Shown piece after piece: positions 1,677 to 53,304 of a stretch of 64,000 nucleotides of DNA. This stretch comes from Pseudomonas phage HPP-Temi, in the sequence record PP968062.1, one strand, 5' to 3'. A program made the position numbers and the translations under genes. The notes beneath the pieces were generated by a model. That model worked only from the letters and a program-made list of their open reading frames with translations. It did no database searches and was not told the origin of the DNA. The stretch's first letter is position 1; every line of letters starts with the position of its first letter.

Positions 1677-1712
1677 GAAAGCCCACTTGGGCGAAAAGTC
1701 AAGCTTAAACTT

Positions 1713-1877: not shown

Positions 1878-1920
1878 CCCCATTGGTTTAGCGGCCAATG
1901 GGGATTTCCTTTTTATGCCG
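1878..1920 (-). terminator. hairpin (ccccattgg...ccaatgggg) with a GGCATAAAAAG flank on minus; terminator after gene 1931..2350
   Basis: 9-bp stem immediately downstream of the stop at 1931; flank matches the family. Confidence 0.5.
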
Positions 1921-1930
1921 CTTCGGACTT

Positions 1931-2350: not shown

Positions 2351-2355
2351 TTTTA

Positions 2356-2864: not shown

Positions 2865-3070
2865 GTAACTACCCCTACAATAAAGACTCGACTGATTTCG
2901 TTGAGATAAGCGAGTACTAGAAGAATACCTGACCAGATAGCGATATTCATTGTAGTACGCTTTTCTTCCAATCCAGGACAAGTGGAATTAACTATTCGAT
3001 GACAGAAAGCACCGAATAGACCAAGTCCCATCGCGACAAAGATGATGGTAAACCAACCAAGATAGATCAT
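2861..3070 (-). CDS. small membrane protein, 69 aa (2 TM)
   Basis: ORF; ATGA coupling at both ends; hydrophobic. Confidence 0.5.
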   Translation of the reverse strand: MIYLGWFTIIFVAMGLGLFGAFCHRIVNSTCPGLEEKRTTMNIAIWSGILLVLAYLNEISRVFIVGVVT

Positions 3071-3621
3071 TGCTGTTGTACCGGTGTCAGTTGTTTGAGA
3101 GCATTGATGATACGGTGAACAGTATCACGTGCCAGTTCTCGGGTATGGAAGTTATTGGATATTTGGTAACGCAGTTCGACTTCCCCAGTTTCAGAGTTAC
3201 GGTCGAAATCTTTTACGATGTATTCACTATCCAGAATAGCTTCCACCATTTCTTTGTTGAGGTCGAACTCAGCGATAGTTGGTGAAACCAAACGACCCTG
3301 GAGATTTCTGATTACCTCATTGCGGAATGCAATGGCGCCTTCGGCAATCTCCAGTCGCTCTTCGATGGCGATAAACGGATTCTTCCAGAGTTCGGTTTCC
3401 ATGGTAGGACGAACAGAGGCTTTCTCCCATGCAATGCACCAGTAGTACCAACGTTCTTGGATTTCTTCGTTGGCTTTATCGAATGCAGCTATCGCGTTTT
3501 TATTACGATGGCAATCCAGAGGACGAGTATCCTTCGGAAGCCAGGTGTCAGTCTTCTCGTGGTAAACGAAACGATCAACACCGGGAGTTACGGCTTGGAA
3601 TTCCTTCAATTTTTTATCCAT
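3067..3621 (-). CDS. hypothetical protein, 184 aa
   Basis: ORF; first gene of the coupled operon 3621 to 2356. Confidence 0.6.
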   Translation of the reverse strand: MDKKLKEFQAVTPGVDRFVYHEKTDTWLPKDTRPLDCHRNKNAIAAFDKANEEIQERWYYWCIAWEKASVRPTMETELWKNPFIAIEERLEIAEGAIAFRNEVIRNLQGRLVSPTIAEFDLNKEMVEAILDSEYIVKDFDRNSETGEVELRYQISNNFHTRELARDTVHRIINALKQLTPVQQQ

Positions 3622-3747
3622 GTGAAATAATACCTATTGGTTGATAGTATGTAAGAAGATTACGCGTTATTTCTTATTCCTACTGCTGGGTGTTTGCCCG
3701 AAACGCGCAATGCTTGAGACGAACTCTTGGGCGAAAAGAGATGGTAT

Positions 3748-3786
3748 TTAGCCCCTACCTTCGGGTAGGGGCTTTATGCCGTTAAC
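3748..3786 (-). terminator. hairpin (gcccctacc-ttcg-ggtaggggc) with CATAAAG / CTTTATGCCGTT flanks
   Basis: Immediately after the stop of gene 3782..4066 (the stop lies inside the flank); family member. Confidence 0.55.
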
Positions 3787-4066
3787 CGACAATAAGACCC
3801 TCAAGCATTAGGGTTTCGGTGTCGGACGCAGGTTGAGTCAGACGAGTTACACGAATGTAGTTCGTCCAGTCACTCCTGTCATAACAACAGCTGCAACCAC
3901 GGACCTTGATGTTGACAGCTTCGATTTCGAAATCATCGAGCTTGATTTCTTTACCGAAGTGATCGACCATGCGTTGGAACAACTTACCGAAGGAGAACGT
4001 TTCGTACTCGCAATCGATGTGGAGGACATCGACAGTGTCCACCGGGGGATTGTAACTACTGCTCAT
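3782..4066 (-). CDS. hypothetical protein, 94 aa (start at the internal ATG with a strong SD, TAAGGAGATGGCTAATG)
   Basis: ORF; excellent RBS; overlaps the upstream stop by TAATGA. Confidence 0.5.
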   Translation of the reverse strand: MSSSYNPPVDTVDVLHIDCEYETFSFGKLFQRMVDHFGKEIKLDDFEIEAVNIKVRGCSCCYDRSDWTNYIRVTRLTQPASDTETLMLEGLIVG

Positions 4067-4394
4067 TAGCCATCTCCTTACGTTTGTTTTTGGCCCAGTT
4101 CTTTTCATACTTCGAACTGATGAATTTCGCAGCGCCTGCGTTCAGCCAGTAGCGTTCGCCTTTGAGATAGCGTTCACGTTTGGCACGGGTCAGGCGAAGA
4201 GGGTCGAACATGTCCTGCTGGTCACACATGTATCGATTCCGCAGGAAGCAGTTGTCGTTCAGAATGCGAACGCTGTACAACTGACCGAGTCGGCAATTCG
4301 CAAGAATTGCTTTCTCAGTACGCAGACGACGTTCGTATTCCTGGGCATCTGCTTTACGAGAACGAGGATGCTTTCTTCCGAGTTTCTGAGACAT
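4056..4394 (-). CDS. basic (K/R-rich) small protein, 112 aa
   Basis: ORF. Confidence 0.5.
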   Translation of the reverse strand: MSQKLGRKHPRSRKADAQEYERRLRTEKAILANCRLGQLYSVRILNDNCFLRNRYMCDQQDMFDPLRLTRAKRERYLKGERYWLNAGAAKFISSKYEKNWAKNKRKEMANEQ

Positions 4395-4405
4395 TGTGGT
4401 TTTTC

Positions 4406-4711
4406 CTATTCCGTTGGTTTACGAAAAATCTTATCATGGAAAGTCATCGCTAACACGACACCTACGGAGCCACCTAGTCCACTGGATATAATAGCGGGAA
4501 GACCCACTATTACAAATAGACCAATGGTGGTTAGCTCAAGGGTACTGATACCCCACGAGGTGAAGAAAGCTGCTTTTTTGTATCCATGAAAGATGTTTCT
4601 TTGTTGAAAGGTTTTTACAAAGGCGTAGATGAACGACGTGGCCGTACTTAACAGTAGTAATACCCAGACAGGTAGATCATGATTAATGTTAATCACTTCT
4701 CTTGTTCCCAC
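4406..4711 (-). CDS. membrane protein, 101 aa (about 3 TM)
   Basis: ORF; hydrophobic. Confidence 0.5.
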   Translation of the reverse strand: MGTREVININHDLPVWVLLLLSTATSFIYAFVKTFQQRNIFHGYKKAAFFTSWGISTLELTTIGLFVIVGLPAIISSGLGGSVGVVLAMTFHDKIFRKPTE

Positions 4712-5721
4712 TTGGTAGGTTCACGTTTACTACGTTGGACTTTATGGATACCTTCCAATTGGTAACCACGGCCAGTTGCTTTGTAGCTGTGTTCCTGATC
4801 CACACGTGCATGGAAAGCCAGGAGGGCTTCGATCGGAGCTTCCACCGGGAAGTACTCGGTGTTGTTGCAGTCCCAACCGAATTCCCACACACCTTCGCGA
4901 ACTTCGTAGCTGTTATCGGTGAGGTAGGTGATGTTGATCGTGTGTGTAGTAGCATTGGCACCGTTGAAGAAAAACGAACCTTCGGTAGCACGAACATCAA
5001 TGCGACCATCATCGATGGTATCCTGATAGTAGAAGCCACGCTTGAAGAAGAACTGAAGCATTGCATTGAAGTAACTGTTCAATACAGCCACTGCGTTAGC
5101 ATCTTCGACTACCCATTTACCATCAACAATCTTGTTCAGATAGTCGCGGTCATGTTGGATACCGAAGTCATTCACGATATCGGCATACAGCTTGTGGTGT
5201 TGAGCAACTTCATACAGACGCTCCAGGGTAGCCCAACGGAGCACACCAGTGGGATGGAGACCCAGCATGATGCGACCGATGTTCCACATGCCAGCACCGT
5301 TGGCTTTGTAGCTCTCGTCCAGGTAGCCTTTGACTTGGGCACCGGGAGAGAGTTCGTCAGCCGGGAAACCAGATGCAGTACGAATGCGGATAACGTTCAG
5401 TACCGCTTCGGGTTCTTTCATGTCCAGCAGGTCAACGCCGAAGGTAGTCCAGCTACCACGGATCTTGTGCTGATACGCAACGCGAACGGTCCCACCGAAC
5501 GGAGTAACGAACCAACGGGCGTCTTCATTGATGACCATGTGGACACCACAGTTCCACAGCGCAGCCAGAGGATCAGTGGATGCCAGGATACGCTTGGTAT
5601 CGTTCTCTTCGCTTTCGGTAGCTTCAGGGCTGGCGCGGAGATGAGTCAAGAGGAACAGGATGGCGGAGTCGTTGGTTTGGGTATTGAGCATTGCACGAGT
5701 CAGGGATGCATTGATGATCAT
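4693..5721 (-). CDS. hypothetical protein, 342 aa
   Basis: Long ORF; no motif recognised. Confidence 0.65.
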   Translation of the reverse strand: MIINASLTRAMLNTQTNDSAILFLLTHLRASPEATESEENDTKRILASTDPLAALWNCGVHMVINEDARWFVTPFGGTVRVAYQHKIRGSWTTFGVDLLDMKEPEAVLNVIRIRTASGFPADELSPGAQVKGYLDESYKANGAGMWNIGRIMLGLHPTGVLRWATLERLYEVAQHHKLYADIVNDFGIQHDRDYLNKIVDGKWVVEDANAVAVLNSYFNAMLQFFFKRGFYYQDTIDDGRIDVRATEGSFFFNGANATTHTINITYLTDNSYEVREGVWEFGWDCNNTEYFPVEAPIEALLAFHARVDQEHSYKATGRGYQLEGIHKVQRSKREPTKWEQEK

Positions 5722-5736
5722 TTCGTAATTTCCTTT

Positions 5737-5937
5737 TTACAGAGTGTTGAGGGTGATGAAGGTATACTGTCCCAGGGCGAAAGCACCGAAGAGGCAGAAT
5801 CCGAATTGGGCTATATCCCGACCACCATTTTTCTCATTGGAACTGAGATAGGTGAGGACCCCGCAGCAGAAGCAGAGGATACCAAGGATGACGAACAGGG
5901 CATAATGGAAAATTCCTACAGTTTCACACATTTTCAA
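5737..5937 (-). CDS. small membrane protein, 66 aa
   Basis: ORF; 2 TM; RBS aaaggaaa. Confidence 0.5.
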   Translation of the reverse strand: MKMCETVGIFHYALFVILGILCFCCGVLTYLSSNEKNGGRDIAQFGFCLFGAFALGQYTFITLNTL

Positions 5938-5964
5938 TTTCCTTTTTGCGTTATAAAAGAGACA

Positions 5965-6003
5965 CGGTATAAAAATAAAAAAGGGGACCCGAAGGTCCCC
6001 TGG
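5965..6003 (-). terminator. rho-independent terminator (ggggacc-cgaa-ggtcccc plus a U-run on minus)
   Basis: Hairpin followed by TTTTTTTATTTTTAT on minus, directly after the stop of gene 6006..6638. Confidence 0.7.
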
Positions 6004-6005
6004 TG

Positions 6006-6638
6006 TTACGCGGCTACCTGAGTGTAGGCCAAAGCATTACACTTCGGCTTACTCGGAGAGACCTCACTGAAGAACATCACGCGATCGTTGATGTACTCGC
6101 GGGCCAGTTCTTCAGATTCGAAGAACATACCCATGGACAGTTTATCTTTCGCATCTTCCATTGCAACCGGCGTACCACGTGCTTCGATCACCACAGACCA
6201 GACACGACCACCGGTATCCATTACGGTTACCAGATGGAAGAAGATCTTGGTCGGATTAGGTAGAGCAGCGGTAGCGGGTTTGGACCACTCCGTTACAGTA
6301 CCCAGGGCCTGGACGGTCATGTCAGCAGTATTGCGCTGATGCATCCAACCTTCCACAGTCGGTACACCGTTTTTCAGGACGATGATATCATACCAGCTCG
6401 CGTTGTTACGTACGACACATCGTTCGTATTTACCACCGGCATTGACGTTACCCATGATCAACACATCGTGAAGCGGAACTTCGATGTGAGTGATCTTGGA
6501 GGTGTAATCAGGAATCAGACGATCATCGACTTTCACCCAGTTAGCTGCACGAGGATGCGCCAGTGTAGCACGAACAACGCCTTTGACAGCTTGTTCTTTG
6601 AGAGCAGCCATTACCAGAACTGCTTGAACGACGTCCAT
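6006..6638 (-). CDS. hypothetical protein, 210 aa
   Basis: ORF; perfect SD, TAAGGAGTAATTATG. Confidence 0.6.
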   Translation of the reverse strand: MDVVQAVLVMAALKEQAVKGVVRATLAHPRAANWVKVDDRLIPDYTSKITHIEVPLHDVLIMGNVNAGGKYERCVVRNNASWYDIIVLKNGVPTVEGWMHQRNTADMTVQALGTVTEWSKPATAALPNPTKIFFHLVTVMDTGGRVWSVVIEARGTPVAMEDAKDKLSMGMFFESEELAREYINDRVMFFSEVSPSKPKCNALAYTQVAA

Positions 6639-6647
6639 AATTACTCC

Positions 6648-6787
6648 TTAATGCATGTTTTCTATTTTGACAATATCCCACTGTGACAATTCAGTGTCAC
6701 GGTAGAACATTTGAAGTGCATCATCGATTCCCATTTGAGAGGGAGCCTCCCAGACGGTACCATTGTAACACGTGATTTTCCAGAGCA
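6648..6787 (-). CDS. small protein, about 46 aa (MLWKITCYNGTVWEAPSQMGIDDALQMFYRDTELSQWDIVKIENMH), not in the ORF track
   Basis: Hand-translated; GGAG 7 nt upstream; its stop overlaps the SD of the next gene. Confidence 0.35.
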
Positions 6788-6822
6788 TGACTACTCCATG
6801 TTAAAAGTTCTTAGGGGGCGAA

Positions 6823-8004
6823 TTATTTGATAACAACCGCTTCCGAGAGAGTTTCCATACTACCGATAACCAGTTTGGATTTCTCTTCATCGGGTTCTTC
6901 CATTGCTTCACGCAGGAGTTCACCGATAGTTTTGGGTTGAACGTCATCGCTGATTTCACGAGAACATGCCGAGTCTTCGAACATGTCGGTCATCCCGAAG
7001 TCGTCATCAAAACCAGAGTCGTAGTACGAGTCTTCCATGGAGTAACTCGATTCATCGGAAGAGTCCGAAGACTCACCGTACATCTCGTCGAAGTCATGTT
7101 CCATTTCTTTCTCGTACATCTCGCTCATCGCTTTGTTATCTTCTTCCTGTGCTTTACGACGAGAAGTCTTGTAGAACGGCAGCAGGCGTTGCAGGACTTT
7201 ATGGAACTTCTTCTTGTTGATCAACCAGCTACTGGAATAACGAGACAGTTTTACTTCAGCTGCCTTGATAGTCGGATCAGCATACATCGCTGCTATCAAT
7301 TTCTCCAGATCGTACAGATGATCCTTCGAAGGGTTGGTATACGCGGGATGCTCTTGGAGAGCGAACATCACGAACGTACGCATGTCAGTGATGAAGTACT
7401 GGTTGTGGTGCTTGTTGATCTCGACGTAGACCGGATCGGTATGACGATGGTAGTCGAACTCTTCAGCCCATGTCAGGTTGCGAACCTTAGTGGGACGAGG
7501 ACCTTCTACCCAACGAACAGTCGGATGTTTCTCACGGATGTTCCAACCATGCATGCGGTCGTATTCAGTCGGTTCTTCTTTGAACCAGGTGAAGTTACCT
7601 TCGCCACGTTCGAGGATCTTTTTACACCAGCTAATGTTGATGCTGTACTTGCGTCCTTCGATCAAGTTGCAGGGTTTATCCAGAACAGCGACATAGCTGT
7701 CATGACCATTGGCCACGATACCAAGAACGGTAGCTTCGAAGGTTTCATAACGCTGACCGGGATACACGCGTTCATTTTCGTCCAGGAAACGGAGAGAACA
7801 GGACTCGAAGATTGCACGGGTACCAGCAGGGAAATGAGCGCGGCCGAAGGGGCTCTCGGCTTTACGTTCCTTGCGACGTTCGATAACCCATTCCAGTTTT
7901 TCTTTGGTCAGACGGGTGGTGGGTTCGCGATATTGTTTCATGGTAATTTCCTTTTTACATTTGGGTTTAGTTGAGTACATCTCAATGCATCCTTTCCAAG
8001 ACAC
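6823..8004 (-). CDS. hypothetical protein, about 385-393 aa, with a D/E/S/Y-rich acidic C-terminal tail
   Basis: Long ORF; start probably ATG at about 7980. Confidence 0.6.
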   Translation of the reverse strand: MSWKGCIEMYSTKPKCKKEITMKQYREPTTRLTKEKLEWVIERRKERKAESPFGRAHFPAGTRAIFESCSLRFLDENERVYPGQRYETFEATVLGIVANGHDSYVAVLDKPCNLIEGRKYSINISWCKKILERGEGNFTWFKEEPTEYDRMHGWNIREKHPTVRWVEGPRPTKVRNLTWAEEFDYHRHTDPVYVEINKHHNQYFITDMRTFVMFALQEHPAYTNPSKDHLYDLEKLIAAMYADPTIKAAEVKLSRYSSSWLINKKKFHKVLQRLLPFYKTSRRKAQEEDNKAMSEMYEKEMEHDFDEMYGESSDSSDESSYSMEDSYYDSGFDDDFGMTDMFEDSACSREISDDVQPKTIGELLREAMEEPDEEKSKLVIGSMETLSEAVVIK

Positions 8005-8009
8005 ATTGA

Positions 8010-8036
8010 GATGGGGTCTCCGAAGAGACCCATCTA
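8010..8036 (-). terminator. hairpin (gatggggtctc-cgaa-gagacccatc) between co-directional genes
   Basis: 11-bp stem right after the stop at 8037. Confidence 0.55.
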
Positions 8037-8639
8037 TTATTCCTGGGTCAGTTCCCCAAGACGACCTTCAGCTTTCATACGGCGGATCTCCGAAATGGAC
8101 TTACCGTATTTTGCAGCCAGTTCCTTTACGGTGCCTTCAGGGGCAGGTTTACTCATGTTGCGAAAGTTTTGCTTGGCGATGTTGTAGTTTTGAGCCTGAA
8201 GAGTTCTCAGCTCAGAACGAACCAAAGCATTGCCAATGCACTGAGAGGTGAAAGTGACCATGAAAGACTTCAGCTTATCACGGTACGTATTGACCCATGC
8301 ACAGGATTCATCCACGTGCGTGCACATGTACTCGGCGGCTTTGGCATATTCCAACAAGCCGACTGCATCTGGTCCAACATCCTGGTAAACCATTTTGTTG
8401 AAAAGGCCCAGTGCGATATCAGATGCACGTTCAGCTGTAATGAAATCGATTGCATCATTAATGATCAACGTTTCCAGATCTTTGAACTTAACCGCATCGT
8501 TTTTGATCAACGCCAGCATAGCGTCAACCTTTACGGTCAACATCATGTCTTCATTACGACGATTGACCAGTTCATTGGTCTGCTCTTGGGTGAACACATG
8601 GTCCACGTTTTGGAAGACTTTCGACAGACGACTATCCAT
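8037..8639 (-). CDS. hypothetical protein, 200 aa, with a C-terminal helix-turn-helix resembling sigma-70 region 4 (TVKELAAKYGKSISEIRRMKAEGRL)
   Basis: ORF; the C-terminal motif matches the T-x-x-E-L-A-x-x-x-G-x-S-x-x-x-I-R pattern of sigma region 4.2. Confidence 0.5.
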   Translation of the reverse strand: MDSRLSKVFQNVDHVFTQEQTNELVNRRNEDMMLTVKVDAMLALIKNDAVKFKDLETLIINDAIDFITAERASDIALGLFNKMVYQDVGPDAVGLLEYAKAAEYMCTHVDESCAWVNTYRDKLKSFMVTFTSQCIGNALVRSELRTLQAQNYNIAKQNFRNMSKPAPEGTVKELAAKYGKSISEIRRMKAEGRLGELTQE

Positions 8640-8640
8640 T

Positions 8641-8816
8641 TATTTATCCTCATTTACAGTGAATGCAAACATAGTACATTTCGGTTTAGCCGGATGTTGA
8701 CACCATTCCTTCGAAACCTTACCATCGGGTTTGGTCAGTTCATAATAGAACTCACCGCAAGCAGCAGCGAGTCCCATCAGAACTGCAAGAAAACCTACAC
8801 CTATTTTGGTTTTCAC
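8641..8816 (-). CDS. possible small lipoprotein, about 57 aa (GTG start; signal peptide with LAAAC lipobox), not in the ORF track
   Basis: Hand-translated ORF fills a 170-bp gap; GTGA overlap with the upstream stop; weak SD. Confidence 0.3.
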
Positions 8817-9199
8817 TTAGCGATGATCCGTTGTACGAAATGTTGGAGATTTGCAACCAGCCGATCGAACTCTTCCTCGGTCAGCTGATCACGATGAGAT
8901 TCCAGAAGTACTTCTACCTCCGGAAGAACGTTCAGAGCGATGTCCAGCTGGATACGCGAAATGAACTCTGCGACATCCAGTTCACGATCACGCCTGAGCC
9001 GATTCACCAACTTGCGATGTTGATCACTATTACGGTAGGCCGAGATCTTATCGATCAGGATGTCCGATATACTGCTTTCGATCTGCTGTACTTCGGTCGG
9101 ACCTTCTTCCTTGTAGGCTGCTTTTACCGCCAGAACAGCTGCTACTGCGGTAGAGGCAACAGCGACTGCAATGAGACCATACTTGATGTAGTTTTCCAT
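8813..9199 (-). CDS. membrane protein, 128 aa (N-terminal TM)
   Basis: ORF; hydrophobic N-terminus. Confidence 0.55.
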   Translation of the reverse strand: MENYIKYGLIAVAVASTAVAAVLAVKAAYKEEGPTEVQQIESSISDILIDKISAYRNSDQHRKLVNRLRRDRELDVAEFISRIQLDIALNVLPEVEVLLESHRDQLTEEEFDRLVANLQHFVQRIIAK

Positions 9200-9204
9200 G
9201 ATAT

Positions 9205-9531
9205 TTACTCCCAGCCCATTTCGGCTTTGAATTCATCAACGCGGGTATCAACGATGGCTTTATATTCGCCATCGCTATCACGCATCTCTAGTGCCATCTT
9301 GATACGAAGGCCCAGCAGGCGTCGTGAGAAATCCCTGCGCACCTTGAACTCTTGTTCACTTTCAGCGTTGATGCGAGTAATTTCGAAGAGAGCCTCCAGC
9401 TTCTTCGAGAACTCGTTGAAGTAGATCTTGTCCGTGACTTTCTGAGCCAGGATATCTACACCGATCATGATACCAGCTACGGCGAAACCAATGCCAACAC
9501 CGATCGCTACTTCTTTGAGAGTCTGGTTCAT
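9205..9531 (-). CDS. membrane protein, about 109 aa (start at the internal ATG with SD AGGAAAA)
   Basis: ORF; TM VAIGVGIGFAVAGIMIGVDILA. Confidence 0.5.
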   Translation of the reverse strand: MNQTLKEVAIGVGIGFAVAGIMIGVDILAQKVTDKIYFNEFSKKLEALFEITRINAESEQEFKVRRDFSRRLLGLRIKMALEMRDSDGEYKAIVDTRVDEFKAEMGWE

Positions 9532-9568
9532 TTTATATTTTCCTATTTTCGAATTTGGGGGATATTGC

Positions 9569-9721
9569 TTAACGCAGTTCAGCTTTGGGCTTTGCAGCTT
9601 CTTCCTTAGCTTTACGACGTTCTTCCAGCCAGTTGTTGTGGTACATGGCAACGCCAGCGAAGCCAACAACGGCGACGGCGATAAGGCCAAGTTCCAATGC
9701 GTTTTCTTTAATGAAGCTCAT
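9569..9721 (-). CDS. small TM protein, about 50 aa (MSFIKENALELGLIAVAVVGFAGVAMYHNNWLEERRKAKEEAAKPKAELR), not in the ORF track
   Basis: Hand-translated; tightly packed between neighbours. Confidence 0.4.
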   Translation of the reverse strand: MSFIKENALELGLIAVAVVGFAGVAMYHNNWLEERRKAKEEAAKPKAELR

Positions 9722-9726
9722 GGTGA

Positions 9727-10068
9727 TTATCCCTTCAGAGTGCTGTCGGCATTGAAGACATCGGGACCAACCGAGAGACTTCCCAGAAGATCCGGCGCGA
9801 GGTATACGGAGTTGAGAGTTTCGTAAACACCGGCAACGGCATCTACTTTGACCAGACTAGAACTACGCAGGGAAACCCACTCACCGTTGCGATAGGTTTC
9901 ACCGACCAGTACACGAACGTCATCGACGTCGTTACGGTGTGGCCACAGTACCTTGCCTTCCACCACTTCTACGTTACGTGCATGGTAGACCAGTTTACCG
10001 TTCATGCGCGCAACGATGTTCGGACGCTGAAGATCATCGATAACTTTAACAGCGACTGCCTTTTCCAT
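9727..10068 (-). CDS. hypothetical protein, 113 aa
   Basis: ORF. Confidence 0.5.
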   Translation of the reverse strand: MEKAVAVKVIDDLQRPNIVARMNGKLVYHARNVEVVEGKVLWPHRNDVDDVRVLVGETYRNGEWVSLRSSSLVKVDAVAGVYETLNSVYLAPDLLGSLSVGPDVFNADSTLKG

Positions 10069-10079
10069 TTTGTATCTCC

Positions 10080-10235
10080 TTATTTAGTTACAAGCATTTC
10101 TTGGCCATTCGGCCCGATACGATGACCGAGGATAACCTCGGATTCTTTTTCAACTTTCGGAGCTTCATAGGAACCACCGTAAACAACAGCAGCACCCAGA
10201 ACCATACCAACCAGAATCATTACGATAGCTTTCAT
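10080..10235 (-). CDS. small secreted/membrane peptide, 51 aa (MKAIVMILVGMVLGAAVVYGGSYEAPKVEKESEVILGHRIGPNGQEMLVTK), not in the ORF track
   Basis: Hand-translated and verified codon by codon; SD AAGGA; early-promoter-like motif 25 nt upstream. Confidence 0.45.
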   Translation of the reverse strand: MKAIVMILVGMVLGAAVVYGGSYEAPKVEKESEVILGHRIGPNGQEMLVTK

Positions 10236-10263
10236 GTTGAGTTTCCTTCTCAGAATAGGGGTT

Positions 10264-10295
10264 TATCACATTTGTAATATACGTTTCAAATGGAT
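10264..10295 (-). promoter_or_regulatory. putative phage early promoter, TTTGAAAcgTATATTACAAatg (minus strand)
   Basis: One of 4 near-identical copies of TTTAAA-N3-TATATTACAA, about 30-40 nt upstream of the first small gene of an operon. Confidence 0.5.
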
Positions 10296-10319
10296 TAAAA
10301 TGTACATTCGAATGAGATA

Positions 10320-10346
10320 AAGGAAAGGGCTCCTAAGAGCCCATCC
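10320..10346 (-). terminator. rho-independent terminator (gggctc-ctaa-gagccc plus a U-rich tail on minus)
   Basis: After the stop of gene 10349..10630. Confidence 0.55.
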
Positions 10347-10348
10347 AG

Positions 10349-10630
10349 TTACAGCTTGTTGAGGAACTTGCGGATCTCTTCACGCAGCTCGCGCAGAGTT
10401 GCGGTCATGAGGATCTTTTCTTCTGCATCGCTGATCAGCCTTTCAGCCAGCCCTTCCAGTTCGATCTTGCGTTCGTCACTGGTGTAATGAGTCGGCAGAC
10501 GATCGTTTGCATCGCGCAGTTGTTGCAGAATTTCTTCCGCGGTGTTTTCGTCGGTCCAGGTGATAGCGATCATAGAGAGAACGCCACCGATGAGAACGCA
10601 GCCGAGACCTTTAGCGATATTGGAAAACAT
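10349..10630 (-). CDS. membrane protein, 93 aa
   Basis: ORF; N-terminal TM. Confidence 0.5.
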   Translation of the reverse strand: MFSNIAKGLGCVLIGGVLSMIAITWTDENTAEEILQQLRDANDRLPTHYTSDERKIELEGLAERLISDAEEKILMTATLRELREEIRKFLNKL

Positions 10631-10658
10631 GGTAAATCCTTACAGTTGGAAGTATATG

Positions 10659-10859
10659 TTAAGAGGTTGCTTCTTCGGGAGTAGCTTCGGTCGGTTCCGA
10701 TTCCGGAGTAGCGGGCGCTTCGGTTTCAGCCTCGGGTTCTGTGGCGGGGGTTTCAGCTTCCACCGGTTCCGCAGACAGGGTATCATACAACTTGTAAGCA
10801 GCGGTACCCAGAGCGAGGACAGCTGCAACAGCACCAGAGGCGATCAGAATCTTTTTCAT
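10659..10859 (-). CDS. small protein, 66 aa, with an N-terminal signal/TM segment and a P/E/A/T-rich acidic tail
   Basis: ORF. Confidence 0.5.
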   Translation of the reverse strand: MKKILIASGAVAAVLALGTAAYKLYDTLSAEPVEAETPATEPEAETEAPATPESEPTEATPEEATS

Positions 10860-10873
10860 GGGCGGTTTTCCTT

Positions 10874-11203
10874 TTAAGGCAGGTCTTTGTATATGACCTG
10901 TTTGATGTAATGGTCGATCCGCGGTTCAGCGGTCTTCCTGATTGGTTCGTATTCCTTGGAGAGGATTACGGTTACTTCCTCCCAACAAGCATCACGTAAT
11001 AACTCGTAACGCTTCTCGGGAGTTCCAACAAGGTACTGGCTCCTACGGAGCAAGACACAGTGATAGCTATCAATAATCTTACCAGCATCATTAACAACCT
11101 TGTTCACCATGTCGATATGGCGCTGCATCAGATAGGCAGTTCCAGCACAACAGGCTACAACCACGCCAGTCACTACAGCGCCGATGACGTAGACGGTTCT
11201 CAC
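10874..11203 (-). CDS. membrane protein, 109 aa (GTG start)
   Basis: ORF; N-terminal TM; GTGA coupling. Confidence 0.5.
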   Translation of the reverse strand: MRTVYVIGAVVTGVVVACCAGTAYLMQRHIDMVNKVVNDAGKIIDSYHCVLLRRSQYLVGTPEKRYELLRDACWEEVTVILSKEYEPIRKTAEPRIDHYIKQVIYKDLP

Positions 11204-11295
11204 GAACCTACTACTTCGTCGTAGATGGCACCTGCAATGTTCATTGCCATGATACCAACGGTTACCACGAAGACGGTCTTGAAGAGAGTGTTCAT
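11200..11295 (-). CDS. tiny hydrophobic peptide, about 31 aa (MNTLFKTVFVVTVGIMAMNIAGAIYDEVVGS), not in the ORF track
   Basis: Hand-translated; ATGA-coupled to its neighbours. Confidence 0.3.
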   Translation of the reverse strand: MNTLFKTVFVVTVGIMAMNIAGAIYDEVVGS

Positions 11296-11402
11296 ACTTG
11301 TTCTCCTTGAGCAGCGTTGAAGACTTCGTCTACAGCCCAGCAGGCAGCGTTGACGACGATGATGCAAGCAGCGAGTTTAACACAGAAACGTGCAAGGTCC
11401 AT
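11292..11402 (-). CDS. tiny hydrophobic peptide, about 36 aa (MDLARFCVKLAACIIVVNAACWAVDEVFNAAQGEQV), not in the ORF track
   Basis: Hand-translated; SD AAGGAG; first gene after an early-promoter-like motif. Confidence 0.3.
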   Translation of the reverse strand: MDLARFCVKLAACIIVVNAACWAVDEVFNAAQGEQV

Positions 11403-11429
11403 GGTGAATCTCCTTGATTTGATTGGCTA

Positions 11430-11460
11430 TTATCACACTTGTAATATAGCCTTTAAATTG
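11430..11460 (-). promoter_or_regulatory. putative early promoter, TTTAAAggcTATATTACAAgtg (minus)
   Basis: Second copy of the motif. Confidence 0.5.
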
Positions 11461-11476
11461 GTTTGAATGTAATCGG

Positions 11477-11911
11477 TTAAACTACCGACTTGCGGGTAAT
11501 GCGTTCGATCAGGTTCTGATCAGTGATGAAGTGACCCAGTACACGACCGATGATATCATCGGCCATGTGTTCGTTGTGGATGTTCACATCAGTGCACAGG
11601 TTGTTGATCAGGCCAGCTTGGCGCTGAAGACCTTGAGTGTTAGCGATGGACTTCTTGCGATATTCCTTGATCACTTCAACGAACTGACGTTCACCGGTAA
11701 TGAAGCGACTGTTCAGACTGGAATAACGCAGGATGTTTTCCATCTTGCCGATCATGTTGTCCATGGTCGACATGTGCCACTTCCAGATATCGGACTTGAT
11801 ATCCTTGGCCAGTTCACGTTGATGGTTCATGTAGATGGCATAAGACATGTAAGCGATGAAGGCGATTACACTCAGGGCTACGATTACGTTGATTGCGATA
11901 TTCATTTTCAA
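11477..11911 (-). CDS. membrane protein, 144 aa (N-terminal TM)
   Basis: ORF; preceded by a hairpin plus TTTATGTCGCT. Confidence 0.55.
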   Translation of the reverse strand: MKMNIAINVIVALSVIAFIAYMSYAIYMNHQRELAKDIKSDIWKWHMSTMDNMIGKMENILRYSSLNSRFITGERQFVEVIKEYRKKSIANTQGLQRQAGLINNLCTDVNIHNEHMADDIIGRVLGHFITDQNLIERITRKSVV

Positions 11912-11934
11912 TTTCCTTTTGGGTTGGAGTGAAG

Positions 11935-11972
11935 CGACATAAAGCCCTGATCGGAATGACCAGGACTTTTAA
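11935..11972 (-). terminator. imperfect hairpin with a CATAAAG ... CTTTATGTCGCT flank, downstream of the macro-domain gene
   Basis: Motif family member; weaker stem. Confidence 0.35.
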
Positions 11973-11978
11973 GTTTGG

Positions 11979-12452
11979 TTAAGCAAGGGCCGCCATCCAG
12001 GGCGGTACAACGACCACCATCTCGTTTGGGATATGACCGCTGAATAGTTCTAATGCTTGTTTCACATCAGGCCATTTCAACATGCCGTTTCCGCAACCGA
12101 GCGGGGGTACAACGATCTTCCACTTAGGGTCGATCCCATCTTCTACATCAATGTTGTCGACGATCCATTGAAGACCGTCATTGATGTAGCTTAACTGTGA
12201 ATCATCTTGCCACCGATCTTTAGTCGGGAACATCATGTAACGTTTACCATCATCACCTAGATAGATGGCTGGGTTACCGATTGTGATGATACGGTACTTG
12301 CAGTCATGCTTGTACTTCTGATACAGCTCGGGGAACTTATCGCGAAACCTCTCGGCTAGACCAGTTCCCATTACGCCTCGGGTGTTAACAGTGATAAGGT
12401 AAAGATCCCCAGGCTCTTTAAAGATGTCTTTACCTATTACGAATTCAGCCAT
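11979..12452 (-). CDS. macro-domain protein (ADP-ribose binding/processing fold), 157 aa
   Basis: ITVNTRGVMGTGLAERF matches the macro motif N-x-x-N-x-x-L-x-GGGV, and VVPPLGCGNGML matches the second glycine-rich macro motif. Confidence 0.55.
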   Translation of the reverse strand: MAEFVIGKDIFKEPGDLYLITVNTRGVMGTGLAERFRDKFPELYQKYKHDCKYRIITIGNPAIYLGDDGKRYMMFPTKDRWQDDSQLSYINDGLQWIVDNIDVEDGIDPKWKIVVPPLGCGNGMLKWPDVKQALELFSGHIPNEMVVVVPPWMAALA

Positions 12453-12521
12453 AGTGAATGGCTCCTTTGCCCTACAAAAATCTAATGGTCATGAGACCAC
12501 AACTCATCAGATTGTGCAAGA

Positions 12522-12686
12522 TTAGGCGAACTCGTTTACCGCCTTTTTTACTGCTATAGTTAGGGTAATTGCAGCGGTTATCATCGCGAGTCCAGCGGTT
12601 GCATATTGGAGCAGTTCACGGTTGTGCGCATACTCGCGTCTGGATTTCTCGTTGTCTTCGTGGGACTTTTTGTGATCGTAGAACAT
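12522..12686 (-). CDS. small TM protein, 54 aa (MFYDHKKSHEDNEKSRREYAHNRELLQYATAGLAMITAAITLTIAVKKAVNEFA), not in the ORF track
   Basis: Hand-translated and verified; SD AAGGA. Confidence 0.45.
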   Translation of the reverse strand: MFYDHKKSHEDNEKSRREYAHNRELLQYATAGLAMITAAITLTIAVKKAVNEFA

Positions 12687-12695
12687 GATGTATCC

Positions 12696-12838
12696 TTAGA
12701 GACCGTTAAAGATCAAAGTGAGAATCAAAGCAACTGCAAAGGTAGCGATTACGCCTTCGAGTGTAATCCAGCTCGGAGGTGTGTTGGGGTCATTACGCTT
12801 TTCACGGGGGAACATTTCTTCCTTAGCTTGTTCTTGCA
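12696..12838 (-). pseudogene. small ORF (29 aa) that may be a frameshifted small TM protein
   Basis: ATG with an AGGTG SD right after an early-promoter-like motif. The frame stops after 29 codons, but the +2 frame continues into a clean TM segment (SWITLEGVIATFAVALILTLIFNGL) that has no start of its own. Confidence 0.25.
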
Positions 12839-12846
12839 TAAAGCAC

Positions 12847-51678: not shown

Positions 51679-51731
51679 AAAAAAAATAAGGCATACGCCC
51701 TCTCCCGAAGGAGAGGGCTATATGTCGTCTT
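51676..51731. terminator. A10 run plus hairpin (gccctctcc-cgaa-ggagagggc) plus TATATGTCGTC; bidirectional terminator at a convergence point
   Basis: Family member; shares the aaaaaaaaaataa-gccctctcc architecture with the 1335-1385 element. Confidence 0.6.
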
Positions 51732-51969
51732 ACACTTGCGCTTCGATCATCATGAAAAGACCACCCAAGAAGAGGGTTAACAACGCAACGATTGCAGCGC
51801 CCCACATGAGGACAGTGCAGATTGTGTTGATACGGTCCAACATGATTCGATCTTTCTTGGGTAGACGAGTACGACGGATATCGTCATCGTCTTTCACCAG
51901 TTTGGCTACAAACAAAGAGCCTGCAATAACTGCAAGCGCGATCCACCAGACGAGCATGATGGCTTCCAT
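51730..51969 (-). CDS. small membrane protein, 79 aa
   Basis: ORF; 2 TM. Confidence 0.5.
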   Translation of the reverse strand: MEAIMLVWWIALAVIAGSLFVAKLVKDDDDIRRTRLPKKDRIMLDRINTICTVLMWGAAIVALLTLFLGGLFMMIEAQV

Positions 51970-51982
51970 GATGAACTCCTTG

Positions 51983-52243
51983 TTACTTCATAAACATCCA
52001 GGGTGGCATCTGTAGCGTCGTGTAGACACTAACCAAAGCCGTGAGGAGAAGCACTAGGTAAATAGCAAAGCTAATAGCCCAGCTAACACAGAGGAACATA
52101 CAGAAGTACTTCCAATTGGGAAGCCACTTGCATACGCCCATTACGAACAGCCATGACACGATATAACCAATCAGGAACATCAGTCCTGGGAAGCTAATCG
52201 TAGCGTAGATAAAGGCAATTGGGTTGGTGAACATCAGATCCAT
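51983..52243 (-). CDS. small membrane protein, 86 aa
   Basis: ORF; 3 TM. Confidence 0.5.
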   Translation of the reverse strand: MDLMFTNPIAFIYATISFPGLMFLIGYIVSWLFVMGVCKWLPNWKYFCMFLCVSWAISFAIYLVLLLTALVSVYTTLQMPPWMFMK

Positions 52244-52251
52244 GTTGGTCC

Positions 52252-52440
52252 CTATTTAGGAAGCATGTCAAAGAGATGGTATCCTGCGTAGCCTGTAACA
52301 GCGATTATGACCATTCCAATAAGAACCGTTACGATTCTATCCGACGGGGTCTTACCGCTTGCTACAAGCCCGTAGAACGTCGTTAAGCCTCCTATCAACA
52401 ACAGGGTGAAGAAGGCAAAGACTATTACGGTCCAACTCAT
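52252..52440 (-). CDS. small membrane protein, 62 aa
   Basis: ORF; 2 TM. Confidence 0.5.
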   Translation of the reverse strand: MSWTVIVFAFFTLLLIGGLTTFYGLVASGKTPSDRIVTVLIGMVIIAVTGYAGYHLFDMLPK

Positions 52441-52443
52441 AGG

Positions 52444-52644
52444 TCAACTCAGGAAGATGATGTAGAAGGCAGCGATCACCAGCAAGATTACCGCCAGGAT
52501 TGCCGCCAGTGGACCGGAGATATTGAAAGCTTTCGCCAACTCGATCGGCATGTGGGATGTTTTAACACCCAATGCGTGCTTCAGGCAATACACGGCGAAC
52601 AGGATAATGATCAGAAAGCAGAAAACGTTAGACAGAAATGCCAT
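52444..52644 (-). CDS. small membrane protein, 66 aa
   Basis: ORF; 2 TM; SD AAAGGAG; early-promoter-like motif upstream. Confidence 0.5.
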   Translation of the reverse strand: MAFLSNVFCFLIIILFAVYCLKHALGVKTSHMPIELAKAFNISGPLAAILAVILLVIAAFYIIFLS

Positions 52645-52669
52645 GGTATTACTCCTTTAGAGGGGCTAT

Positions 52670-52698
52670 ATTCATTGTTGTAATATAGGCTTTAAACC
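52670..52698 (-). promoter_or_regulatory. putative early promoter, TTTAAAgccTATATTACAAcaa (minus)
   Basis: Fourth copy of the motif. Confidence 0.5.
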
Positions 52699-53021
52699 AG
52701 TTTAAGTACATACGACAGGTTAGCCATAGCAAACAGGGCTACTGTAAAGAACCCAAACCAACCGATGAAGTAGTAACGATAATCACGCCACCACTTGGGA
52801 GTATCATAACCATTCGGATTGATTACAGCATTACCGATACCCAATACACAGGTCCAGATAGCTGCAACACCAGTAAGGATACTCAGCGTAGTGAACGGTA
52901 GATAAATATACGCTGCGATAGGGATAGCAATAACCGCAACAAGAATGCAGAACATCAGGTTGGGGAAAGGAAGAGCACCGTGGGGAGCGTTTTCATAAGC
53001 GTGTTGAGAGAAAGTAGTCAT
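52692..53021 (-). CDS. membrane protein, about 109 aa (start at the ATG with an AAGGAAAA SD)
   Basis: ORF; 3-4 TM. Confidence 0.5.
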   Translation of the reverse strand: MTTFSQHAYENAPHGALPFPNLMFCILVAVIAIPIAAYIYLPFTTLSILTGVAAIWTCVLGIGNAVINPNGYDTPKWWRDYRYYFIGWFGFFTVALFAMANLSYVLKLV

Positions 53022-53031
53022 TTCATTTTCC

Positions 53032-53304
53032 TTAGATGTTGGTAACAGCAATTACAAACAGGATCAGCGTAAAGTAAGTTAATACCAGGTAACATTTCTT
53101 TACGAACGTATGGATCAATCGGGTCAACGCAATCTCAGAATACTCTATAGACTGCTTTATTAACGTCGGTTTGATGTTCTGTCCGGCTAAACGTAACATG
53201 TGTTTATAGTGCGCGGTTCTGTACTCCTCGCGGAGCTTCAGTTCCAATACATACATCATGACGGCTAATATCGGTGAAACAATAAGCAGGATCACAGGTG
53301 ACAT
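53032..53304 (-). CDS. membrane protein, about 90 aa (start at the internal ATG with a GAGGAAA SD)
   Basis: ORF; TM. Confidence 0.45.
   Translation of the reverse strand: MSPVILLIVSPILAVMMYVLELKLREEYRTAHYKHMLRLAGQNIKPTLIKQSIEYSEIALTRLIHTFVKKCYLVLTYFTLILFVIAVTNI

Follow-up and report, generated by a model that had tools for sequence, protein, structure and literature searches.

Conserved genes for very small, predicted membrane or secreted proteins, most of them in three early-type operons, in the phiKZ-like phage HPP-Temi

Early genes of described phages and the HPP-Temi locus

T4 Imm, T4 Sp and T5 Llp are membrane proteins or lipoproteins that are made early and act in superinfection exclusion. 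We know of no exclusion phenotype for any gene of a phiKZ-like phage. The phiKZ gp010–014 orthologs of the genes considered here have transcripts that peak at 5 min and drop 4–7-fold: in an RNA-seq series taken at 5, 10, 15, 20 and 30 min, the values pass from 1142 to 286 for gp010, from 1955 to 461 for gp012, from 3464 to 482 for gp013 and from 5514 to 1345 for gp014 (PMC12571901 source data). In the same data, the PHIKZ103 transcript is sustained until 15–20 min, and PHIKZ104 climbs late, from 1019 to 11395, as a middle/late gene.

HPP-Temi belongs to the phiKZ-like jumbo phages of Pseudomonas (Chimalliviridae) and has about 84% identity to the Pawinskivirus phages PS119XW/PA1C. The window analysed is a stretch of 64,000 nucleotides (PP968062.1). 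Its minus strand carries 16 genes at 8640–12839, 14 of which encode proteins of 31–142 aa with a single strong hydrophobic segment (Table 1). The preliminary description had counted about 15 small membrane or secreted proteins with one or two transmembrane (TM) helices or a signal peptide; nearly all genes are indeed hydrophobic, but the number is 14, and two segments are never found in this cluster. All the ORFs it named are present on the minus strand, two of them with ends one base off (corrected, with stop codons, to 8640–8816 and 6648–6788). The expectation that they would be missed by standard annotation is true of six small genes of the region in the PhiPA3 RefSeq record and one in phiKZ, but PS119XW and PA1C annotate every ORF as a CDS.

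Table 1. Features of the region and of the second cluster. KD, best Kyte–Doolittle window; dN/dS is relative to PS119XW; Z, score of the ortholog comparison; membrane and signal segments are predicted
Feature	Coordinates	Strand	Support
Second cluster: six consecutive genes, 62–109 aa, two hydrophobic segments apiece	51730..53304	−	Hydropathy
Early-type promoter P1	12861..12912	−	Core TATATCAC at 12880-12873; PWM 30.8 bits
47-aa C-terminally anchored membrane protein, PHIKZ102.1 family	12696..12839	−	KD 2.31, residues 25–43; phrog_34982 E 3.5e-7; dN/dS 0.12; PhiPA3 (unannotated) Z 18.4; phiKZ 102.1 Z 16.3
54-aa protein, charged N-terminus, C-terminal TM segment	12522..12686	−	KD 1.76; dN/dS 0.064; PhiPA3 (unannotated) Z 25; 201phi2-1 gp166 Z 20
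Macro-domain protein, PHIKZ104 homolog, no membrane protein	11979..12452	−	phrog_335 E 1.5e-36
phiKZ-type terminator hairpin, then CTTTATGTCG	11946..11964	−	Read in sequence
g11477, 142 aa, N-terminal TM anchor, helical domain	11477..11905	−	KD 2.34; dN/dS 0.08
Early promoter P2	11429..11480	−	Core TATATTAC at 11448-11441; PWM 48.8 bits
36-aa single-TM micro-protein	11292..11402	−	KD 2.14; PhiPA3 (unannotated) Z 14.9
31-aa single-TM micro-protein	11200..11295	−	KD 1.86
109-aa protein, N-terminal TM anchor, GTG start	10874..11203	−	KD 2.13; dN/dS 0.12; PhiPA3 gp109 Z 11.6
66-aa protein, N-terminal TM/signal segment, Pro/Glu/Thr/Ala-rich acidic tail	10659..10859	−	KD 1.99; PhiPA3 (unannotated) Z 8.3
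93-aa protein, N-terminal TM anchor	10349..10630	−	KD 2.08; dN/dS 0.10; phrog_25105 E 2.3e-6; PhiPA3 gp110 Z 18.8
Terminator hairpin closing P2 operon	10327..10342	−	Sequence
Early promoter P3	10262..10313	−	Core TATATTAC at 10281-10274; PWM 32.9 bits
51-aa PHIKZ010.1-family micro-protein	10080..10235	−	phrog_15989 E 4e-24; dN/dS 0.04
gp011 homolog, 113 aa, soluble, no membrane protein	9727..10068	−	phrog_23976; PHIKZ011 83% identity
g9569, 50-aa TM protein	9569..9721	−	KD 2.19; phrog_27375 E 1.7e-5, residues 1–41; dN/dS 0.17
g9205, 108-aa protein, N-terminal TM anchor	9205..9531	−	KD 2.19; dN/dS 0.13; PhiPA3 gp112 Z 8.0
gp012 homolog, 128 aa, N-terminal TM helix, soluble four-helix domain	8813..9199	−	phrog_27375 E 1.5e-56
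58-aa secreted/anchored peptide, signal-like N-terminus	8640..8816	−	Found in 49 phage records; PhiPA3 (unannotated) Z 15
gp013 homolog, 200 aa, soluble, last P3 operon gene	8037..8639	−	phrog_24977 E 3e-58
Hairpin 3' of gp013 homolog	8014-8031		Sequence

Coding status and early-type promoters

The 14 very small proteins are encoded by real, conserved genes, most of them within three early operons. Comparison with PS119XW, with dN/dS and substitutions counted by codon position, indicates purifying selection on the small ORFs that had been translated by hand (dN/dS 0.01–0.37, the weakest constraint being that of the 66-aa protein with the acidic tail) and a third-position bias in every small ORF diverged enough for testing. 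The counts by codon position are 0/1/15 for the 36-aa ORF (dN/dS 0.014) and 5/0/15 for the 31-aa ORF (dN/dS 0.06). Long antisense ORFs of the plus strand contain 1–7 stops in PS119XW where the DNA is diverged enough and the alignment spans the ORF. The translation signals agree with those described earlier: most start codons are preceded by a Shine–Dalgarno (SD) sequence of the AGGA/GGAG type, and there are three 4-base ATGA/GTGA overlaps (8813–8816, 11292–11295 and 11200–11203), so that the 31-aa gene is coupled by ATGA with the upstream gene and by GTGA with the downstream one.

It is extremely improbable that the smallest ORFs are untranslated chance frames in the spacer between real genes. 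PS119XW keeps their start, stop and length, PhiPA3 has orthologs in matching order with 22–55% identity, and the low dN/dS (0.01–0.17), strong third-position bias and translational coupling also argue for translation, even though lengths of 31–58 aa fall under the usual calling thresholds, two small ORFs have a weak SD and the hydrophobic segment of the 31-aa ORF is ordinary for its composition (452/2000 shuffles). The gene order recurs in PhiPA3, where 10 of the 14 small TM proteins have sequence-supported syntenic orthologs (Z 8–25); the counterpart of the 31-aa protein shares position and type only (Z 2.3).

A position weight matrix (PWM) of the promoter, trained on other phages only, was used to scan the 64 kb. 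Just four matches were found (12880, 11448, 10281 and 52687), scoring 27.7–48.8 bits where the null reached 4.1 bits at most, all on the coding strand with a start codon 34–39 nt downstream. The first three motifs each precede a small TM gene and are of the virion-RNA-polymerase early type. The core found here is identical to the published early promoter of phiKZ, TATATTAC, and fits the extended consensus of 201phi2-1 (PMC7058600 Table 2). P1, contained in the 3' end of the gp102 homolog, is followed after 34 nt by the 47-aa gene and scores 36.2 at the same position in PS119XW, 18.3 in PhiPA3 and 48.9 in phiKZ. P2 is followed after 39 nt by the 36-aa gene, and P3 after 39 nt by the gp010.1 homolog; the P3 motif likewise precedes PHIKZ010.1 and PhiPA3 gp111. 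All three positions are kept in PS119XW and PhiPA3, which fully retain motifs and gene order; phiKZ and 201phi2-1 do so partly, and the conservation spans several genera of Pseudomonas chimalliviruses. The published phiKZ terminator motif (PMC10914365) fits the hairpin and CTTTATGTCG at 11946–11964.

Early timing in HPP-Temi is thus supported by the motifs heading the runs of small genes and by the early expression of phiKZ gp010–014. The early assignment does not extend to the whole region, since the macro-domain ortholog is late and no early motif was found upstream of g11477: the timing of these two genes differs, or may differ, from that of the three early units. The P1 unit, too, is early only in part, given the sustained PHIKZ103 and late PHIKZ104 transcripts.

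Predicted membrane targeting and possible function

In a Kyte–Doolittle scan (19-residue window, threshold 1.6), the best windows of the 14 hydrophobic proteins reach 1.76–2.34; the gp011 homolog and the macro-domain protein are the two of the 16 that have no such segment. Assuming a background of 20–30%, the probability of at least 14 hydrophobic proteins among 16 is 1e-8 to 3e-6. Composition-preserving shuffles reproduced the segment in at most 2.3% of cases for 12 proteins, and in 5.8% and 23% for the tiny, near-entirely hydrophobic 36-aa and 31-aa ORFs. Hydropathy and charge are the basis of the predicted membrane insertion and topology, and the membrane targeting proposed earlier is borne out at this level. 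The second cluster of six TM proteins also stands; PS119XW annotates all six genes (dN/dS 0.04–0.35), and the core of the fourth promoter match (52687–52680) is internal to it. The 46-aa ORF at 6648–6788 is a real gene (PHIKZ016.1-like, phrog_29556; dN/dS 0.15) but not hydrophobic (maximum KD 0.02).

Several members can be described further. The PHIKZ010.1 family (12 diverged representatives of 49–60 aa) combines a variable hydrophobic N-terminal segment with an invariant C-terminal motif, VILGHRIGPxGQEMLV, and is the first gene behind the early promoter in four genera. The AlphaFold2 model of the gp012 homolog (pLDDT 70–89 over residues 40–128) has PhiPA3 gp113 as its sole credible structural match (TM 0.67); the family comprises phiKZ-like phage sequences only, with one partial match labelled Klebsiella. 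g9569 duplicates the N-terminal TM segment of gp012 and adds a basic tail. Just two homologs of g11477 were found among 5.8e9 proteins. phiKZ, fnug, T2P and 124.01 carry no annotation for the 58-aa ORF, and PA7 has opposite-strand calls in its place; the ORF is real and has a C-x7-C cysteine pair in every intact copy examined. Its description as lipoprotein-like fares less well: phiKZ, Bobae and Churi have Gly in place of the LAAAC cysteine, fnug has Val and PhiPA3 lacks the residue, and lipidation is therefore at most lineage-specific. Natural loss is seen in the 124.01 group, through a 32-nt deletion that shifts the frame of the ORF, and in T2P, through the removal of 12 aa in frame.

We propose that most of the region consists of three consecutive early units with the macro-domain gene and g11477, and that the 14 proteins are probably accessory early effectors directed at the host envelope. 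The injected virion RNA polymerase would start transcription of the three units at conserved TATAT(T/C)AC-type promoters in the first minutes of infection; these units and g11477 would yield 14 small bitopic or secreted proteins of 31–142 aa, interleaved with the soluble gp011, gp013 and macro-domain homologs. The small proteins would be inserted into the inner membrane via host Sec/YidC or exported to the periplasm, and would then act on envelope components: they might prevent secondary injection of DNA by the same phage or by competitors, silence envelope machines or weaken defences that act on membranes. Superinfection exclusion and host takeover, suggested before, are reasonable candidate roles. 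The genes have been gained, lost and duplicated and diverge fast in sequence, as fits an arms-race accessory module. Most phiKZ orthologs tolerate transposon insertion in published data and are dispensable on PAO1 (Tn-seq reads: gp011 2522, gp012 667, gp013 1425, gp102.1 1733 and gp103 2605; essential comparators: ChmA 13, terminase 54). The few reads of PHIKZ010.1 (43, or 8.6 per insertion) suggest that the most conserved member may matter beyond an accessory role. Sequence and profile comparison of these proteins gave no homology to characterised exclusion, holin, spanin, defence or anti-defence families, and no PDB or fold match was found for them.

A role of the 14 proteins as replication, nucleus or lysis machinery is unlikely. 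Their part in building the phage nucleus, one of the initial suggestions, is disfavoured by the absence of the genes from the Chimalliviridae core set and by the transposon tolerance of the phiKZ orthologs. Alternatively, translation beside the EPI vesicle might let the proteins insert into the vesicle membrane, or into the inner membrane close by, and help to move the genome into the chimallin shell as channels, tethers or release factors. Early transcription implies that they are presumably made while the lipid EPI vesicle still exists, and the gp010.1 family, with its invariant motif, its leading position behind the early promoter and its low Tn-seq counts, would suit such a pathway. However, the vesicle arises at injection, ahead of all phage gene expression (PMC13282480), most members are limited to Pseudomonas phiKZ-like phages and vary between genera, phiKZ gp011, 012, 013, 102.1 and 103 tolerate insertions, and none of the proteins appears in the text passages checked of the injected-protein (gp93) interactome preprint; a role in this pathway is quite improbable.

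It is doubtful as well that the proteins counter host immunity associated with the membrane (abortive-infection pore formers, and sensors of early infection, Juk-type or other) rather than competing phages. The neighbouring early gene PHIKZ014 is required only in a particular clinical isolate, and the authors of that study suggest that it circumvents a strain-specific defence system (PMC12571901); dispensability on PAO1 and fast, lineage-specific turnover point the same way, but comparison with known defence and anti-defence proteins found nothing similar. With ten queries, a gp012–JukA match (E 0.01, 13.5 bits) is no better than expected by chance.

Comparison with known systems

Like T4 Imm and Sp and T5 Llp, the proteins assigned here to accessory envelope effectors are small early products of a large lytic phage, predicted to be targeted to the inner membrane or periplasm; Llp, a small early lipoprotein, can be compared with the lipobox-bearing form of the 58-aa peptide. 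They differ in the lack of sequence or profile similarity to these three proteins and in the unconserved lipidation. The small bitopic form, in which an N-terminal anchor precedes a small soluble domain, also recalls T4 rI/rIII-type lysis-inhibition factors and class III holins. Lysis or lysis timing (holin, antiholin, spanin or rI-like sensor) is nevertheless a very remote reading, already disfavoured: in phiKZ, a cassette at another locus, gp142–144 and neighbours (PMC12894885, PMC12676376), holds the holin, endolysin, spanins and lysis regulator, which speaks against the lysis-timing role put forward initially, and the present genes stand behind early promoters, expression of the phiKZ orthologs falls after 10 min, matches to holin or spanin families were not found and the lipobox Cys varies. 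In its favour are the resemblance in form of the small bitopic proteins and the one lipobox-like peptide to holins, antiholins and o-spanins and the suggestion, in the phiKZ lysis study, that a lysis-inhibition system is still to be identified (PMC12894885).

The closest systems are those of related phages, and the small membrane genes are of interest as candidates but do not make up a new kind of system. HPP-Temi adds to the phiKZ gene set an entire early operon of five TM genes (11402–10349), g11477 and, within the gp010.1 operon, g9569 and g9205; none of these has a detectable phiKZ counterpart. At the PhiPA3 gp107–gp113 locus (Miltoncavirus), no counterparts of g11477, gp011, g9569 and gp013 were found; protein identity is 22–55% and DNA similarity is almost undetectable, yet gene order and three promoter positions are shared. 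The phiKZ operon PHIKZ010.1-011-012-(unannotated 57-aa ORF)-013 has direct orthologs here (identity 51% for gp010.1, 83% for gp011, 81% for gp012, 75% for the 58-aa ORF and 73% for gp013), as does the PHIKZ102.1-103-104 unit (45% for gp102.1 and 61% for gp104). The two units are about 100 kb apart in phiKZ and adjacent in HPP-Temi and PhiPA3, and the same early-promoter motif stands ahead of gp010.1 and gp102.1 in phiKZ.

Small hydrophobic genes and their early-type promoter motifs

The segment 8000–13400 has matches covering 97% of its length, with an identity of about 84%, in seven jumbo phages of Pseudomonas aeruginosa that belong to the PS119XW/PA1C/phiHQ/BRkr group. The match to phiKZ-like phages is confined to the first 1.2–2 kb. 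The adjoining 461-aa protein is a homolog of PHIKZ101 and occurs across chimalliviruses. All genes considered here are on the minus strand. In the preliminary description, early operons with about 15 tiny membrane or secreted peptides were proposed in this region; every ORF named there is present, and the ATGA/GTGA four-base overlaps and Shine–Dalgarno sequences are as it stated. A 19-residue hydropathy scan indicated one hydrophobic segment in each of 14 of the 16 genes (best windows 1.76–2.34), the exceptions being the gp011 homolog and the macro-domain gene, a PHIKZ104 homolog. The excess over the 20–30% background has a P of ~1e-8 to 3e-6. Ten of the 14 small proteins carry an anchor or signal-like segment at the N-terminus. 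In the 47-aa and 54-aa proteins, the N-terminus is charged and the TM segment is C-terminal, and the 36-aa and 31-aa proteins are barely more than a single TM helix with acidic ends. An all-against-all comparison revealed no paralogy among the TM proteins, save the similarity of the 50-aa g9569 product to the gp012 N-terminus. The 46-aa ORF, which had been listed among the small ORFs, is a real gene, but its product is hydrophilic. The second cluster was described correctly: it contains six genes with two hydrophobic segments in each.

Two further features of the window can be noted. A third group of small proteins (139, 69, and 96 aa, two hydrophobic segments each) is located near its start. 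Additionally, a Group I catalytic intron (RF00028, 59.2 bits, E 1.7e-12) lies between two plus-strand ORFs, where the local GC content falls to 0.41.

The intergenic gaps 11403–11476 and 10236–10348 have TATATTACAAnTGTGATAA in common. The published core of the phiKZ early promoter is TATATTAC, and the extended consensus of 201phi2-1 fits too (PMC7058600, Table 2). Across the 64 kb of the window, a 52-nt position weight matrix (PWM) trained on nine sites, from phiKZ, PhiPA3, and 201phi2-1 only, picked out four sites and no more, each of them on the minus strand; the maximum in 20 simulated sequences was 4.1. The distance from the end of each of the four cores to the start codon is 34–39 nt. The P1, P2, and P3 motifs recur in PS119XW and PhiPA3 at identical positions, and the corresponding motifs of phiKZ precede PHIKZ102.1 and PHIKZ010.1. 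Judged by sequence, the three transcription units are preceded by predicted promoters of the phiKZ early (virion RNAP) type, with the core tens of nucleotides upstream. A generic scan for sigma-70 promoters and terminators contributed only its hairpins; the promoter hits were set aside as uninformative, since transcription in this phage family depends on RNA polymerases of its own.

Coordinates of the features in the window and of the corresponding sites in related phages
Feature	Position	Strand	Details
P1 early-type promoter motif	12880	-	PWM 30.8 bits; core TATATCAC
P2 early-type promoter motif	11448	-	PWM 48.8 bits
P3 early-type promoter motif	10281	-	PWM 32.9 bits
Early-type promoter motif, second cluster	52687	-	PWM 27.7 bits
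Small-gene region	8640-12839	-	16 genes
Second cluster	51730-53304		6 genes
Macro-domain gene	11979-12452	-
Terminator hairpin, phiKZ-type	11946-11964
g11477	11477-11905	-	142 aa
gp011 homolog	9727-10068	-
g9569	9569-9721	-	50 aa
Gene between g9569 and gp012 homolog	9205-9531	-	108 aa
gp012 homolog	8813-9199	-
gp013 homolog	8037-8639		200 aa
Hairpin	8014-8031
PHIKZ014 homolog	6823-7941
Hydrophilic ORF	6648-6788		46 aa
Third small-protein group	1931-4696	-
Group I intron	43446-43781	+	RF00028
ORFs flanking the intron	42163-43497, 43713-44066	+
PhiPA3 NC_028999, unannotated ORFs (locus positions)	5937-6077, 5757-5927, 4967-5074, 4870-4974, 4364-4519, 2741-2923	- (of locus)	46, 56, 35, 34, 51, 60 aa
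phiKZ NC_004629, unannotated ORF	5472-5645		57 aa
PHIKZ010.1 (phiKZ record)	4570-4719		150 bp
PA7 NC_042060, FDI90_gp024/025	1878-2719	opposite
Phage 124.01, 58-aa ORF copy with deletion	2470-2520 (locus)
T2P, 58-aa ORF copy with deletion	2501-2647 (locus)

Coding status and reference annotations

Sequence comparison shows the small ORFs of the region to be genes. The dN/dS ratio relative to PS119XW is 0.014–0.17 in seven of the eight ORFs shorter than 60 aa, and third positions hold most of the substitutions: by codon position, these are 0/1/15 in the 36-aa ORF and 5/0/15 in the 31-aa ORF relative to PS119XW. The dN/dS of the 58-aa ORF is unusable because only two substitutions distinguish it from PS119XW; phiKZ was used for comparison, where the ORF is intact with an identity of 75%. 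The second cluster, with its six genes, gives dN/dS values of 0.04–0.35. Long antisense ORFs were rejected as genes, since they carry stops in PS119XW in all cases where the two sequences have diverged; a crude longest-ORF caller chose such ORFs in the small-gene region, and a curated gene list was used instead.

The expectation that standard annotation would miss these genes does not apply to this lineage: PS119XW and PA1C both have every one of the ORFs as an annotated CDS, so standard pipelines do detect them here. In the PhiPA3 RefSeq record, six counterparts with hydrophobic segments fall in unannotated gaps, and five of them show significant similarity to the small proteins of the window. 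The phiKZ genome contains an intact unannotated 57-aa ORF between PHIKZ012 and PHIKZ013, GTGA-coupled to PHIKZ012. It is absent from the reference annotation, so the Tn-seq and RNA-seq gene tables published on that basis leave it out. Annotation of the 58-aa ORF is likewise missing from fnug, T2P, and 124.01. In the PA7 RefSeq record, the opposite-strand FDI90_gp024/025 are called across the gp011/gp012/58-aa region; this is probably a misannotation because it is the other strand that is conserved. The reference annotations can be corrected by adding six small genes for PhiPA3 RefSeq and one for phiKZ; guide, antisense-oligomer, or Tn-seq-table screens based on these annotations currently overlook them.

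Synteny and individual protein families

PhiPA3 belongs to a different genus with DNA similarity near nil at this locus, and the gene order is kept. It begins with gp101, gp102, the P1 motif, 46-aa and 56-aa TM ORFs, and the macro-domain gene, continues with the P2 motif, 35-aa and 34-aa TM ORFs, gp109, a 51-aa ORF with an acidic tail, and gp110, and ends with the P3 motif, gp111 (= gp010.1), gp112, gp113 (= gp012), and a 60-aa ORF with a Cys pair. Shuffle-calibrated alignments support ten orthologous pairs (Z 8–25, 22–55% identity); the 31-aa ORF agrees in position and type only (Z 2.3). The 201phi2-1 phage retains gp166 (ortholog of the 54-aa protein, Z 20) and gp173 (= gp010.1, Z 11), as well as further small TM genes around the macro-domain gene and two early motifs. 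The phiKZ genome retains gp010.1, gp012, the 57-aa ORF, and gp102.1, and the P2 operon genes are absent from it. Loss of synteny in relatives had been named in advance as grounds for refutation; since the order is kept fully in PhiPA3 and partly in 201phi2-1 and phiKZ, the set passed this check. Recent inter-genus recombination within the early operon is suggested by the mosaic of dS values relative to PS119XW (~0–0.03 for the gp013 homolog and the 58-aa ORF, 1.2–2.5 for the genes at 10349–12839) and by the identity of the 8000–9180 block, which is 95% to Phikzvirus PA7/PA02 as well.

The 58-aa ORF was found in 49 phage records. In all intact copies examined, the signal-like start of the peptide, the core LTKPEGKVSKE, and a pair of Cys residues are kept. 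The peptide had been described as lipoprotein-like. A lipobox was defined as [LVI][ASTVI][GAS]-C after a basic n-region and a hydrophobic h-region, with the Cys conserved in orthologs. The window sequence MKTK...LMGLAAA-C, with Leu at -4 and Ala at -3, is a relaxed match only, and the Cys is replaced by Gly in phiKZ, Bobae, and Churi and by Val in fnug, and is missing in PhiPA3. The peptide is probably exported and, at most, lipidated only in this clade. Natural deletions of the ORF exist: in phage 124.01, a 32-nt frameshifting deletion destroys it, with the same truncated match in five further records, and in T2P, an in-frame 12-aa deletion shortens it, removing the end of the hydrophobic segment.

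The gp012 homolog belongs to the PHIKZ012 family phrog_27375 (E 1.5e-56), with an N-terminal TM segment and a helical domain. Its model consists of a TM helix and a four-helix bundle (soluble domain pLDDT 70–89); it has no match in the PDB and, among viral models, only one, to the ortholog PhiPA3 gp113. The single-sequence AlphaFold model of g11477, the 142-aa gene, has a pLDDT of 44.5. At its start, g9569 (MSFIKENALELGLIAVAV) closely reproduces the ancestral N-terminus of gp012, for which PHIKZ012 has MNFIKENALGLGLIALAV; in the gp012 homolog itself this end is shortened, and a 108-aa gene separates the two genes. This arrangement looks like an insertion with partial duplication. The gp013 homolog, which ends the P3 operon, has the same 200-aa length in PS119XW, PA7, fnug, and Churi, and is 135 aa long in phiKZ, T2P, and 124.01, where the C-terminal part runs on in another frame. 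Directly downstream of the operon, beyond a hairpin, there is a homolog of PHIKZ014 (80% identity to PHIKZ014, 96% to PS119XW); PHIKZ014 itself is an early ribosome-associated protein required in the clinical isolate PaLo44 (PMC12571901).

The 51-aa protein is a member of the PHIKZ010.1 family phrog_15989 (E 4.2e-24, residues 1–51). Twelve diverged representatives of 49–60 aa were found in 1.84 billion proteins; by cluster look-up, the relatives are mostly from metagenomic contigs. The 16-residue C-terminal motif V(I/V)LGHR(I/V)GPxGQEMLV is invariant, while the hydrophobic N-terminus varies; LGHR(I/V)GPxGxEMLV is shared unchanged by 13 sequences. In four genera, this gene is the first after the early promoter. 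In published phiKZ Tn-seq data, PHIKZ010.1 has 43 reads and five insertions, compared with 667–2522 reads and 7–10 insertions in its operon neighbours. This hints at a fitness cost of losing the most conserved micro-protein, with its dispensability ambiguous.

Expression timing and candidate roles

In the phiKZ RNA-seq control series (5, 10, 15, 20, and 30 min), transcripts of gp010–gp014 are maximal at 5 min and then drop 4–7-fold, gp103 is sustained with a maximum at 15 min, and gp104, the macro-domain gene, climbs from 1019 to 11395 in a ChmA-dependent manner (PMC12571901 source data). Judged from the motifs and these kinetics in phiKZ, the early timing predicted for this phage has good support in the case of the P2 and P3 operons. 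It is plausible for the two small P1 genes and does not extend to the macro-domain gene, as gp104 rises late. A phiKZ-type terminator hairpin precedes g11477.

PHROG matches of the small proteins are limited to families of unknown function, and searches of Pfam, PADLOC, NCBIfam, and PDB sequences yielded sub-threshold matches only; those to RNA_pol_Rpb4, JukA, type IV Cas5, Amuc_1100, and BamI were taken as chance. Among the roles suggested at the outset, one in lysis would imply clustering with the endolysin, late expression, and a family match. The phiKZ lysis cassette is located elsewhere, the promoters predicted here are of the early type, the kinetics of the orthologs are early, and no match to a holin- or spanin-type family was found, all of which argues against it. 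Participation in the core nucleus/EPI machinery (ChmA, PicA, Imp type) would imply conservation across Chimalliviridae and essentiality. The distribution of the set is limited to Pseudomonas phiKZ-like phages, and the phiKZ orthologs carry many transposon reads, with the ambiguous exception of gp010.1. In the published Tn-seq data, ChmA has 13 reads and the terminase 54, whereas gp011, 012, 013, 014, 102, 102.1, 103, and 104 have 667–5527 and are thus dispensable on PAO1.

For gp010.1, perhaps with several neighbours, a non-dispensable role as a conserved early effector at the early-vesicle membrane or the injection site can be imagined, because its gene is the first after the early promoter in four genera, its C-terminal motif is invariant while the N-terminus drifts, and it has far fewer phiKZ Tn-seq reads per insertion than its operon neighbours. 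Such an effector could block a second injection by sealing the inner membrane, or aid genome hand-over to the nascent nucleus. We consider this role improbable.

The data as a whole fit a set of accessory effectors, early and directed at the envelope, that evolves fast. Nucleus-forming jumbo phages are intensively studied, and phage-encoded membrane proteins are not mentioned in the recent reviews searched. The candidate set is now defined by three predicted early promoters and 14 small predicted membrane or secreted proteins, ten of them common to PhiPA3, and it opens superinfection exclusion, inter-phage competition, envelope remodelling, and counter-defence to testing. No homology to a characterised superinfection-exclusion family was found in PHROG, Pfam, NCBIfam, or PADLOC. 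Superinfection-exclusion proteins of other phages include T4 Imm and Sp, T5 Llp, and P22 Sie. Analogy with T4 Imm/Sp and T5 Llp would make superinfection exclusion, inter-phage competition, and counter-defence the likeliest roles of these putative effectors.
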